Shown here piece after piece: positions 76-4,377 of a stretch of 4,377 nt of DNA. Both the position numbers and the translations under genes were made by a program. Numbering within the stretch: position 1 is the first letter of the stretch; each line of letters opens with the position of its first letter. The DNA lies in IMG/VR virus record IMGVR_UViG_2579778674_000005. One strand, 5' to 3'. The notes beneath the pieces were generated by a model. That model worked only from the letters and a program-made list of their open reading frames with translations, made no database searches and was not told the DNA's origin. Origin of the DNA: a virus. Lineage: Duplodnaviria; Heunggongvirae; Uroviricota; Caudoviricetes.

Positions 76-103
76 AAACCGCCTCCGGGCGGTTTTGTCG
101 TTT
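76..103 (+). other. Intergenic stem-loop (8-bp stem AAACCGCC / GGCGGTTT, 4-nt loop TCCG) followed by a T-rich tract; possible weak terminator, attenuator or mRNA stability element between I and J
   Basis: Read directly: gAAACCGCCtccgGGCGGTTTtgtcgttt. The inverted repeat is perfect and is followed by TTTTGTCGTTT. Function not established. Confidence 0.3.
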
Positions 104-104
104 A

Positions 105-109
105 TGGAG
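105..109 (+). promoter_or_regulatory. Shine-Dalgarno-like sequence (TGGAG) for J
   Basis: TGGAG lies 8 nt upstream of the J ATG at 118-120; an additional GAGG sits at 113-116. Confidence 0.45.
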
Positions 110-117
110 CGTGAGGA

Positions 118-282
118 ATGGGTAAAGGCAGCAGTAAGGGGCATACTCCGCGCGAAGCGAAGGACAACCTGAAGTCCACGCAGTTGCTGAGTGTGATCGA
201 TGCCATCAGCGAAGGGCCGGTTGAAGGTCCGGTGGATGGATTAAAAAGCGTGCTGCTGAACAGTACGCCGGTGCTGGACTGA
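118..282 (+). CDS. J: J N-terminal fragment (54 codons) ending at the premature in-frame TGA
   Basis: ATG at 118 with an upstream SD; translation MGKGSSKGHTPREAKDNLKSTQLLSVIDAISEGPVEGPVDGLKSVLLNSTPVLD*; TGA at 280-282 lies inside a 12-nt insertion. Confidence 0.6.
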   Translation: MGKGSSKGHTPREAKDNLKSTQLLSVIDAISEGPVEGPVDGLKSVLLNSTPVLD

Positions 283-291
283 GTGCTGGAC
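271..291. repeat. Short tandem duplication: GTGCTGGAC, TGA, GTGCTGGAC (net 12-nt insertion relative to the contiguous reading)
   Basis: Read directly: ccgGTGCTGGACtgaGTGCTGGACactgag. The encoded VLD tripeptide is repeated around a TGA codon. Confidence 0.8.
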
Positions 292-1692
292 ACTGAGGGG
301 AATACCAACATCTCCGGCGTCACGGTGGTGTTCCGGGCCGGTGAGCAGGAGCAGACACCGCCGGAGGGATTTGAATCCTCCGGCTCCGAGGCGGTGCTGG
401 GTACGGAAGTGAAATACGACACGCCGATTACCCGGACCATCACGTCGGCAAACATCGACCGTCTGCGCTTTACCTTCGGTGTGCAGGCACTGGTGGAAAC
501 CACCTCAAAGGGGGACCGGAATCCGTCGGAAGTCCGCCTGCTGGTTCAGATCCAGCGTAATGGTGGCTGGGTGACGGAAAAAGACATCACCATTAAGGGC
601 AAAACCACCTCGCAGTATCTGGCCTCGGTGGTGGTGGGTAACCTGCCGCCGCGCCCGTTTAATATCCGGATGCGCAGGATGACGCCGGACAGCACCACAG
701 ACCAGCTGCAGAACAAAACGCTCTGGTCGTCATACACCGAAATCATCGATGTGAAACAGTGCTACCCGAACACGGCACTGGTCGGCGTACAGGTGGATTC
801 GGAGCAGTTCGGCAGCCAGCAGGTGAGCCGTAATTATCATCTTCGCGGGCGCATTCTGCAGGTGCCGTCGAACTATAACCCGCAGACGCGACAATACAGC
901 GGTATCTGGGACGGAACGTTAAAACCGGCATACAGCAACAACATGGCCTGGTGTCTGTGGGATATGCTGACCCATCCGCGCTACGGCATGGGGAAACGTC
1001 TTGGTGTGGCGGATGTGGATAAATGGGCGCTGTATGTCATCGGCCAGAATTGCGACCAGTCGGTGCCGAACGGCTTTGGCGGCACGGAGCCGCGCATCAC
1101 CTGTAACGCTTACCTGACCACACAGCGCAAGGCGTGGGATGTGCTCAGTGATTTCTGCTCGGCGATGCGCTGTATGCCGGTATGGAACGGGCAGACGCTG
1201 ACGTTCGTGCAGGACCGACCGTCGGATAAGGTGTGGACCTATAACCGCAGTAATGTGGTGATGCCGGATGATGGCGCGCCGTTCCGCTACAGTTTCAGCG
1301 CCCTGAAAGACCGCCATAATGCCGTTGAGGTGAACTGGATTGACCCGAACAACGGTTGGGAGACGGCGACAGAGCTTGTTGAAGATACGCAGGCCATTGC
1401 CCGTTACGGTCGTAATGTCACGAAGATGGATGCCTTTGGTTGTACCAGTCGGGGGCAGGCACACCGAGCCGGGCTGTGGCTGATTAAAACGGAACTGCTG
1501 GAAACGCAGACCGTGGACTTCAGCGTGGGTGCGGAAGGGCTTCGCCATGTACCGGGGGATGTCATTGAAATCTGCGATGATGACTATGCCGGTATCAGCA
1601 CCGGCGGGCGCGTGCTGGCGGTGAACAGCCAGACCCGGACACTGACGCTCGACCGTGAAATCACGCTGCCAAGCCGGGCTGTGGCTGATTAA
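283..1692 (+). CDS. J: J internal fragment (frame 1), from just after the premature TGA to the stop created by the duplication frameshift
   Basis: ORF from the supplied track (GTG at 283). Its translation continues the gpJ sequence (…[33 protein letters not shown]…) and terminates at TAA 1690-1692 inside the second repeat copy, read out of frame. Whether it is translated independently is unknown. Confidence 0.7.
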
Positions 1693-1876
1693 AACGGAAC
1701 TGCTGGAAACGCAGACCGTGGACTTCAGCGTGGGCGCAGAAGGGCTTCGCCATGTACCGGGCGATGTCATTGAAATCTGCGATGATGACTATGCGGGCAT
1801 CAGCACCGGCGGGCGCGTGCTGGCGGTGAACAGCCAGACGCGGACACTGACGCTCGACCGTGAAATCACGCTGCCA
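1467..1876. repeat. Imperfect direct tandem repeat, 2 x 205 nt (copy 1 1467-1671, copy 2 1672-1876), 199/205 identical
   Basis: Manual alignment of the two copies at a fixed 205-nt offset, with no gaps. Mismatches lie at 1530, 1533, 1557, 1590, 1593 and 1635 (copy-1 coordinates). Both copies encode the same peptide, [68 protein letters not shown], in different frames. Confidence 0.9.
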
Positions 1877-3814
1877 GCCTCCGGCACCACGCTGATAAGC
1901 CTGGTTGACGGGCAGGGGAGTCCGGTCAGCGTGGAGGTTCAGTCCGTCACCGACGGCGTGAAGGTAAAAGTGAGCCGGGTTCCTGACGGTGTTGCTGAAT
2001 ACAGCGTGTGGGGGCTTAAGCTGCCGACGCTGCGCCAGCGCCTGTTCCGCTGCGTGAGTATCCGTGAGAACGACGACGGCACGTATGCCATCACTGCCGT
2101 GCAGCATGTGCCGGAGAAAGAGGCCATCGTGGATAACGGGGCGCACTTTGACGGTGATCAGAGCGGCACGGTGAATGGTGTCACGCCGTCAGCAGTGCAG
2201 CATCTGACCGCCGAAGTCACTGCAGACAGCGGGGAATATCAGGTGCTGGCGCGATGGGACACGCCGAAGGTGGTGAAGGGGGTGAGCTTTATGCTTCGCC
2301 TGACTGTGGCAGCAGACGACGGCAGTGAGCGGCTGGTCAGCACGGCCCGGACGACGGAAACCACATACCGCTTCACGCAACTGGCGCTGGGAAACTACAG
2401 GCTGACAGTCAGGGCGGCAAATGCCTGGGGGCAGCAGGGCGATCCGGCGTCGGTATTGTTCCGGATTGCCGCACCGGCAGCACCGTCGCGGATTGAGCTG
2501 ACGCCGGGCTATTTTCAGATAACCGCCACGCCGCATCTTGCGGTTTATGATCCGACGGTACAGTTTGAGTTCTGGTTCTCGGAAAAACGGATTGCTGATA
2601 TCAGGCAGGTTGAAACCAGCGCGCGTTATCTTGGTACGGCGCTGTACTGGATAGCCGCCAGTATCAATATCAAACCGGGCCATGATTATTATTTTTACGT
2701 TCGCAGTGTGAACACCGTTGGCAAATCGGCATTCGTGGAGGCTGTTGGTCAGCCGAGTGATGATGCATCCGGCTATCTGGATTTTTTCAAAGGCGAGATA
2801 GGGAAAACCCATCTGGCTCAGGAGCTGTGGACGCAGATTGATAACGGTCAGCTTGCGCCTGACCTGACTGAAATCAGGACGTCCATTACGGATGTCAGCA
2901 ATGAAATCACGCAGACCGTCAATAAGAAACTGGAAGACCAGAGTGCGGCAATTCAGCAGATACAGAAGGTTCAGGTTGATACAAATAATAACCTGAACAG
3001 CATGTGGGCTGTGAAGCTGCAGCAGATGCAGGACGGACGCCTTTATATCGCGGGTATTGGTGCCGGTATTGAGAACACCCCTGACGGCATGCAGAGTCAG
3101 GTGCTGCTGGCGGCGGACAGGATTGCGATGATTAATCCTGCAAATGGCAACACAAAACCGATGTTTGTTGGTCAGGGTGATCAGATATTCATGAATGAAG
3201 TGTTCCTGAAATATCTGACGGCTCCCACCATTACCAGCGGCGGTAATCATCCGGCATTTTCCCTGACACCGGACGGGCGACTGACGGCGAAAAATGCGGA
3301 TATCAGTGGCAGTGTGAATGCTAACGCCGGGACGCTCAACAACGTTACGATAAATGAGAACTGTCAGATTAAAGGGAAACTGTCAGCCAACCAGATTGAA
3401 GGCGATATTGTCAAAACAGTGGGTAAGGCTTTTCCGCGGGACTCCCGGGCACCGGAGCGGTGGCCATCAGGGACCATTACCGTCAGGATTTATGACGATC
3501 AGCCTTTTGACAGGCAAATTGTTATTCCGGCGGTGGCATTCTGCGGCGCTAAACATGAGCGGGAGAATAACGATATTTATTCGTCATGCCGCCTGATAGT
3601 GAAGAAAAATGGTGCTGAAATTTATAACCGTACCGCGCTGGATAATACGCTGATTTACAGTGGTGTTATTGATATGCCAGCTGGTCACGGCCACATGACG
3701 CTGGAGTTTTCGGTGTCAGCATGGCTGGTAAATGACTGGTATCCCACAGCAAGTATCAGCGATTTGCTGGTTGTGGTGATGAAGAAAGCCACCGCAGGCA
3801 TCAGTATCAGCTGA
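1655..3814 (+). CDS. J: J C-terminal fragment (frame 2); the J-homologous part starts at about 1676 and includes FN3-like repeats and a divergent C-terminal receptor-binding region
   Basis: ORF from the supplied track (GTG at 1655). From [14 protein letters not shown]… onward it repeats and then continues the gpJ sequence, ending at TGA 3812-3814. The first 7 codons are not J-derived in this frame. Confidence 0.7.
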
Positions 3815-3832
3815 ATTTTATAACCCATATAC

Positions 3833-3857
3833 GGGCGCCAGAAATGGCGCCTTTTTT
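3833..3857 (+). terminator. Rho-independent terminator downstream of J (lambda tJ-like)
   Basis: A perfect GC stem (GGCGCC / GGCGCC, palindromic) with a 6-nt loop AGAAAT, followed immediately by TTTTTTATT, begins 19 nt after the J stop. On the minus strand the hairpin is followed by CGTATAT rather than a U-tract, so it is oriented for + strand transcripts. Confidence 0.8.
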
Positions 3858-3870
3858 ATTGCAGAAAAGC

Positions 3871-3876
3871 GAGAGG
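3871..3876 (+). promoter_or_regulatory. Shine-Dalgarno sequence (GAGAGG) for lom
   Basis: GAGAGG lies 5 nt upstream of the ATG at 3882. Confidence 0.6.
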
Positions 3877-3881
3877 TAATT

Positions 3882-4377
3882 ATGCGTAAAGTTTGTGCAG
3901 CCATTTTGTCCGCAGCCATCTGTCTGGCCGTATCCGGTGCGCCTGCATGGGCGTCTGAGCAGCAGGCCACACTGAGCGCAGGGTATCTTCATGCCCGTAC
4001 GAACGCTCCCGGCAGCGATAATCTGAACGGGATTAACGTGAAATACCGTTATGAGTTTACGGACACGCTGGGGCTGATTACGTCATTCAGTTATGCCAAC
4101 GCTGAAGATGAGCAAAAAACGCATTACAGCGATACCCGCTGGCATGAGGATTTCGTGCGTAACCGCTGGTTCAGCGTGATGGCGGGGCCGTCTGTGCGCG
4201 TGAATGAATGGTTCAGCGCGTATGCGATGGCGGGTATGGCTTACAGCCGTGTGTCGACTTTCTCCGGTTCGACTTTCTCCGGAGATTATATCCGCGTAAC
4301 TGACAACAAGGGGAAAACGCACGATGTGCTGACCGGAAGTGATGACGGTCGCCACAGCAACACGTCTCTGGCGTGGG
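3882..4377 (+). CDS. lom: Outer membrane protein Lom (Ail/Lom/OmpX/PagC beta-barrel family); 3' end lies outside the window
   Basis: ATG at 3882 with SD; frame open to the window edge with no stop. Translation MRKVCAAILSAAICLAVSGAPAWA|SEQQATLSAGYLHARTNAPGSDNLNGINVKYRYEFTDTLGL… has a typical Sec signal peptide with an AWA cleavage motif and matches lambda Lom as I recall it, in the same position immediately downstream of J. It is absent from the supplied ORF track, presumably because it has no stop in the window. Confidence 0.85.
   Translation, partial: MRKVCAAILSAAICLAVSGAPAWASEQQATLSAGYLHARTNAPGSDNLNGINVKYRYEFTDTLGLITSFSYANAEDEQKTHYSDTRWHEDFVRNRWFSVMAGPSVRVNEWFSAYAMAGMAYSRVSTFSGSTFSGDYIRVTDNKGKTHDVLTGSDDGRHSNTSLAW
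4254..4283. repeat. 15-nt tandem duplication within lom (TCGACTTTCTCCGGT / TCGACTTTCTCCGGA), in frame, encoding STFSG twice
   Basis: Read directly; 14/15 identical, and the single difference (GGT vs GGA) is synonymous. As I recall it, lambda Lom has a single STFSG at this position (…SRVSTFSGDY…). Confidence 0.8.

Follow-up and report, generated by a model that had tools for sequence, protein, structure and literature searches.

The question raised by this locus is how a gene for a phage tail tip protein came to contain two nearly identical 205-nt segments lying head to tail, and whether the resulting frameshift belongs to the organism or to its genome assembly. The window, meaning the whole stretch of DNA that was analyzed, is 4,377 bp long and corresponds to the entirety of contig AYKD01000101.1 in the draft assembly for E. 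coli FCH1 (GCA_000511545.1), with all features described below lying on the plus strand. Our analysis indicates that the 205-nt tandem duplication is very probably a short-read misassembly, in which two versions of a prophage J gene were placed in series, and not a biological event.

The AYKD01 prefix belongs to E. coli FCH1 (PMC6455142), which de Been et al. 2014 (PMC4270446) describe as a human faecal ESBL isolate. Their report gives the data as 90-bp paired-end HiSeq 2000 reads with 500-bp inserts at approximately 116x coverage, assembled and scaffolded with SOAPdenovo v1.05 using a k chosen between 21 and 63, and it also mentions near-identical multi-copy blaTEM genes that were misassembled in other strains. 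With reads of 90 bp, no single read can span a 205-nt unit. Strain FCP1 was considered as a clonal sister of FCH1 and set aside; the two strains share a farm of origin, but their assemblies differ in size (4.73 vs 5.06 Mbp), and in the available text of the study clonality is demonstrated only for farm A. The region from J to lom is typically multi-copy in the species: of 5,426 complete E. coli genomes, 4,977 contain matches to the window, in a median of 2 places each and in as many as 14. Among roughly 15 billion proteins, each of the products of the two large ORFs in the window was found exactly once.

Gene order in the window is I-J-lom. Positions 1 to 57 hold the 3′ end of a lambdoid tail assembly protein I gene, recognized by its alignment to the end of the CDS annotated as “tail assembly protein” in H10407/SEC470, where position 3057 of reference locus L001 corresponds to window position 57. 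J, the gene for the tail tip or host specificity protein, follows in three pieces as deposited: a 5′ fragment of 54 codons (118 to 282), ended by a TGA at 280 to 282; a middle fragment of 469 codons (283 to 1692), ended by a TAA at 1690 to 1692 and containing the Pfam domains FNIII-A_GpJ and Phage-tail_3; and a 3′ fragment of 719 codons in the next frame (1655 to 3814), containing Ig_J, Ig_J_second, Phage_Tail_Tip, and Ig_GpJ_C. Downstream is lom (3882 to 4377), assigned to the Ail/Lom outer membrane proteins by PF06316 (Ail_Lom), which runs off the end of the contig. Between J and lom, a terminator scan identified a GC-rich, terminator-like hairpin followed by a T run (3833 to 3852), a match at the level of the consensus only. 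A similar hairpin, AAACCGCCTCCGGGCGGTTTTGTC, occurs between I and J at 76 to 100, where it was spotted by eye and is not listed by the scan. Both hairpins are kept in the reference prophages, and each resembles an ordinary intergenic structure.

The set of J domains together with the I-J-lom synteny, seen with annotated neighbours in H10407, DX6, and EC71, identifies the gene as a lambda-type J (TipJ) tail tip gene. The likeness to bacteriophage lambda, where J (gpJ/TipJ) is followed by lom, lies in this gene order and in the Pfam J domains, and nucleotide identity between the window and the gpJ and Ail/Lom genes annotated in prophages of E. coli is 96% to 98.5%. Unlike lambda J, the deposited J is distributed over three ORFs that are split by inserted segments.

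The largest of these segments is the 205-nt repeat. Tandem Repeats Finder placed it at 1467 to 1876 with a period of 205, 2.0 copies, 97% matches, and 0 indels, and a repeat of this length and identity is far beyond chance. Direct comparison of copy 1 (1467 to 1671) with copy 2 (1672 to 1876), which follow each other head to tail without a spacer, showed identity at 199 of 205 positions (97.1%). The six mismatches, given as copy 1/copy 2, are T/C at 1530/1735, G/A at 1533/1738, G/C at 1557/1762, C/G at 1590/1795, T/C at 1593/1798, and C/G at 1635/1840. In the local reading frame all six are third codon positions, and the codon pairs they produce (GGT/GGC, GCG/GCA, GGG/GGC, GCC/GCG, GGT/GGC, and ACC/ACG) are synonymous. 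A first-pass annotation of this DNA had reported the same coordinates, identity, and six synonymous third-position differences, all of which are confirmed here by the repeat finder and the direct comparison. It had also described a shift in the J reading frame, and the ORFs agree with this: because 205 is not a multiple of 3 (205 = 3 × 68 + 1), the frame of the ORF at 283 to 1692 runs into the TAA at 1690 to 1692, and J resumes in the next frame in the ORF at 1655 to 3814. The borders of the repeat are sharp. The left flank ends in ACCG and the unit in GCCA, the unit starts with AGCC and the right flank with GCCT, and direct comparison found 0 nt of shared microhomology where 1671 meets 1672. 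Counted from their starts, the copies agree over exactly 63 bases before they first differ.

The identity of the two copies can be addressed by comparison with natural J genes, for which we used a set of 85 J loci comprising 56 distinct alleles. Copy 2 is 100% identical to the J of YDC107, EC71, and PS2Canimalfeces3. No exact natural match was found for copy 1, which lies 2 bases from the J allele of 89-3156 and WP8-S17-ESBL-05, an allele that has every one of the six copy-1 variants. Across the 85 natural loci, polymorphism is present at each of the six variable sites. Random substitutions in the unit would be synonymous in 26.5% of cases, so that six of six has a probability of approximately 3.5e-4. 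The proposal of the first-pass annotation that the copies represent two J alleles, each under selection, and not the product of drift in a dead gene is therefore well supported by the natural polymorphism of the sites, by the exact allele for copy 2, and by the low probability of the pattern under random substitution.

The same annotation had drawn attention to the fact that six of six differences are synonymous, and this observation has two sides. It is unlikely under random substitution, as just described, but it is unremarkable between natural alleles. Within the unit, 24 of 31 polymorphic sites in an 81-locus subset are third positions, synonymous changes make up 92% of the pairwise differences among the 56 natural alleles, and of the 131 allele pairs separated by exactly six sites, 53% differ only synonymously. 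Since pairs of alleles are so commonly all-synonymous, the six-of-six pattern is uninformative on how the two copies became adjacent.

The arrangement of the window relative to other genomes is more telling in this respect. Alignment to the closest complete genome (ETEC H10407/SEC470, 98.5% identity) shows that the window contains three additional segments and no more, 12, 205, and 15 nt long; they make up the 232 bp by which the window (4,377 bp) exceeds the 4,145 bp spanned by the closest references. The first-pass annotation had missed the two smaller duplications, one of 12 nt in J that includes the TGA at 280 to 282 and one of 15 nt in lom. In the 12-nt duplication, the first unit GGTGCTGGACTG (270 to 281) has G..G as its allele state, T at 280 being anomalous, and the second unit AGTGCTGGACAC (282 to 293) has the A..C state of the backbone, sites 270 and 293 being natural polymorphisms. 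The TGA at 280 to 282 arises from this duplication and cuts J at codon 55, upstream of the 205-nt repeat. T at 280, which creates the TGA, occurs in 0 of 85 natural alleles, and all 85 have A. Neither allele explains this base, which appears to be an error of consensus or filling made at the join. The stop-carrying 12-nt insertion is absent from all reference J genes. The 15-nt duplication in lom consists of GTCGACTTTCTCCGG (4253 to 4267) and TTCGACTTTCTCCGG (4268 to 4282); it is in frame and repeats the peptide STFSG, and its units are distinguished by a natural G/T polymorphism that is synonymous, with G, the second-allele state, in the first unit and T, the backbone state, in the second.

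The 12-, 205-, and 15-nt duplications thus share one anatomy, in which the backbone state (“B”) gives way to a short patch of the second-allele state (“V”) and B then restarts from an earlier position. In the 205-nt repeat, copy 1, probably the spurious insert, is in the V state and reads TGGCTC at the six variable sites; copy 2 is in the B state, reads CACGCG, and is continuous with the remaining J. The V state of copy 1 is confined to 1530 to 1635 (approximately 106 nt); the sequence directly to its left is B-type, with 1309 to 1529 identical to H10407, and once copy 1 is deleted 1309 to 4377 equals H10407 except at 1735 and 1738. At all three duplications the second copy continues the backbone, and the haplotype of strain 89-3156 matches the first-copy state (G..G at 270/293, TGGCTC, and G..G in lom). 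The copies differ solely at naturally polymorphic sites in all three cases, the T at 280 being the one exception. When the three inserts are deleted, an intact J of 1,159 codons and an open lom are recovered, with no other lesions in either gene, and the repaired 1,159-aa J differs at 4 to 5 residues from the annotated gpJ of DX6 and H10407.

The divergence of the contig from H10407 is uneven along its length. Positions 1 to 1308 contain 29 substitutions, and 1309 to 4377 contain essentially none besides the duplications and positions 1735 and 1738. The sharp change at 1308/1309 could be a natural mosaicism or recombination breakpoint within J, or it could be further chimerism of a collapsed multi-prophage contig.

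Paths through an assembly graph start and finish at sites where alleles vary, a property that recombination junctions have no reason to share. At both 1671|1672 and 4267|4268, the left piece halts just before a polymorphic site (the 1877-equivalent, with G in 3 and T in 82 loci, and 4283, with A in 6, G in 50, and T in 1), and the right piece restarts exactly on one (1672, with A in 9 and C in 76, and 4268, with T in 14 and G in 44). The backbone has the rarer state at each of these four sites, and the local density of polymorphism at the joins is 0.17 to 0.34. None of the three junctions occurs in the 5,426 complete E. coli genomes, where the best matches are two-piece and single-copy, and exact-pattern scans of GTDB species genomes, IMG/VR, and metagenome contigs likewise found the 205-nt junction absent. 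All 85 of the natural J loci that were extracted are single-copy.

The site of the 12-nt join has some history of its own in other draft genomes. A look-up of the 54-aa J fragment, made for carriers of the 12-nt insertion, returned contig-end truncations and not carriers, and the index places this 54-residue truncated product in 892 blocks of the collection. In nine draft assemblies of unrelated E. coli (L003-L011, compared over their last 46 bases), a contig ends at GGTGCTGGACA or at GGACAG, which is the site of the join, 163 to 164 nt into J and just before or on a C/G/T polymorphic site (approximately 279 to 281 / 291 to 293). That nine assemblies end a contig here marks the position as a habitual branch point in short-read assembly graphs. 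Another assembly (L002; GCA_000235085.1, JH377996.1) has a 100-N scaffold gap at 9613 to 9712, at the same 5′ position in J, followed by a shortened J call of 928 residues. This is a different lesion from the 12-nt insertion and a second example of a J gene mangled by scaffolding.

The combination of a short-read SOAPdenovo contig, three duplications of the same anatomy, and junctions that occur nowhere else favours assembly error over recombination. Of the two causes that the first-pass annotation had offered for the repeat, assembly error is thus strongly preferred and real recombination disfavoured, and its view of the duplication as a biological inactivation of J is probably wrong. FCH1 most likely holds at least two lambdoid prophages with nearly identical J-lom regions, the second of which would be represented here by the V patches. 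In a short-read de Bruijn graph, such copies would collapse to a single path with small allelic bubbles, and we infer that scaffolding or gap-filling in SOAPdenovo v1.05 then wrote both versions serially at three places. Each duplication would consist of a short V piece followed by B restarting from an earlier position, and the largest case would add 205 bases and produce the apparent frameshift. The real J in FCH1 is probably intact, with 1,159 codons.

Several details bear on this misassembly more specifically. The copies are near-identical and adjacent, the reads are shorter than the unit, and the breakpoints are at branch points, all of which are hallmarks of a false heterotype duplication, as is the absence of the duplication from independent, better assemblies (here complete genomes and collections of strains other than FCH1). 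The 63-nt identical prefix of the copies equals the largest k tried (63), a suggestive match that is consistent with the output of a contig together with its leading k-mer. When polymorphic sites were sought 63 nt downstream of the two small joins and the contig ends, this k = 63 prefix model did not fit them. A bubble written out with k−1 flanks on both sides was also considered and rejected, as it needs 2k = 101, for which there is no integer k. Against a misassembly, it can be said that 90-bp reads might in principle suffice to assemble a genuine 205-nt duplication whose copies differ at six sites. On the misassembly reading, FCH1 reads that span the junction would be lacking.

What would have to be true for the duplication to be a real feature of the FCH1 chromosome can be judged against the same observations. 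One possibility is a hybrid J pseudogene in a decaying prophage, formed if two co-resident lambdoid prophages underwent illegitimate recombination or a template switch that joined V at 1671 to B at the 1467-equivalent. It would account for copies that are two natural alleles, it has the material it needs in the several J copies usual in E. coli genomes, and prophage tail genes are often pseudogenes, as with the IS2-disrupted J genes among the matches (H21/H22). We nevertheless consider it very improbable, as a homologous switch from B to V would have to be followed within approximately 200 nt by an illegitimate jump from V back to B, with no microhomology at the 205-nt join, and this double event would be needed three times in 4.4 kb, each time leaving a V patch of 12 to 142 nt just left of the join. 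Such a triple B-to-V switch, followed each time within 12 to 200 nt by an illegitimate jump back to an earlier place in B, is very unlikely. J and lom have no other lesions, the junction is in no other genome examined, and the coincidence of the joins with allele-variant sites is not something that recombination predicts. A related idea, that the duplications are physically real and that three short switches of template, from one co-resident lambdoid prophage to another, patched J-lom and each left a small tandem duplication made of one copy per prophage, appears distinctly improbable; if true, it would point to recurrent inter-prophage copy-choice that scars tail genes. A programmed frameshift or a functional split J was considered and rejected in view of the upstream TGA, the absence from every other J, and the intact ORF obtained without the inserts.

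Tandem duplications arise spontaneously in bacteria, and replication slippage within a single J gene could have produced the repeat, with the six differences acquired later through mutation or through gene conversion in which another prophage was the donor. Gene conversion could indeed bring in natural variants, whereas mutation would have to yield six synonymous changes of six, with the low probability given above, and on known polymorphic sites that jointly form a natural haplotype. Conversion, for its part, would have to strike one copy alone in each of three separate duplications. Genuine slippage or unequal crossover should leave homology at the junction and copies that were identical at birth and diverged by unselected mutation; neither was found, and the junction is again absent from other genomes, making this origin extremely improbable. 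Another reading keeps the assembler but changes its input, with contamination or a heterogeneous culture supplying two variants of one prophage that were then written serially. Its sequence signature would be the same as that of two prophages in one genome, separable from it only by read depth, but a mixture is unneeded when multi-copy J-lom is normal in one genome (median 2), and the material sequenced in the study was isolates, not communities (PMC4270446). We regard such a mixed template as scarcely credible.

If the misassembly reading is right, there is no J pseudogene in FCH1 and no recombination event that needs explaining. The broader implication is one of caution, in that SOAPdenovo-era drafts in GenBank and RefSeq can hold small tandem duplications in multi-copy prophage genes, and such artefacts mimic frameshifted pseudogenes whose copies seem to be under selection. 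Misassembled records also feed J fragments to protein databases, where all three products of this contig (54, 469, and 719 residues) can be found. The signature can be screened for: several short tandem duplications in a small contig, with differences on allelic sites and joins on polymorphic positions. Were the duplication real, it would be a modestly interesting case of illegitimate exchange between co-resident prophages.

False duplications of this general kind have been described before. Kelley & Salzberg 2010 reported “duplicated overlapping contigs” with a median identity of 98.1% (PMC2864568), and Rhie et al. 2021 described “heterotype” false duplications that arise from graph bubbles, together with duplications at contig boundaries (PMC8081667). 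The J repeat resembles heterotype duplications in that divergent versions of one locus (97.1% identical here), following separate graph paths, end up side by side and break the gene model. It is unlike them in that the published cases involve the haplotypes of diploids and are usually kilobases in size, while in the J case the versions would come from paralogous prophages of a haploid bacterium, unit size is 12 to 205 nt, and no Ns intervene. Genuine slipped-strand or microhomology-mediated duplications offer a more superficial likeness, namely a head-to-tail repeat in coding sequence that causes a frameshift. The J case departs from them in having no microhomology at the junction, differences that match a natural haplotype, and three events in one 4.4-kb contig with none in other genomes.

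A further comparison is with the software itself. According to the SOAPdenovo2 paper of Luo et al. 2012, heterozygous contigs were dealt with improperly by the original SOAPdenovo, the earlier GapCloser could make wrong choices where highly similar repeats were inconsistent, and SOAPdenovo v1.05 came without the new gap-closure module (PMC3626529). A literature search for explicit reports of tandem-duplication artefacts from GapCloser gave general statements only, besides an irrelevant match to TRITEX, and the SOAPdenovo2 paper does not contain this exact signature of small tandem duplications; the attribution to a particular module is our own tentative one. The errors attributed to SOAPdenovo1 and early GapCloser do belong to the same software generation (v1.05) with which FCH1 was assembled.
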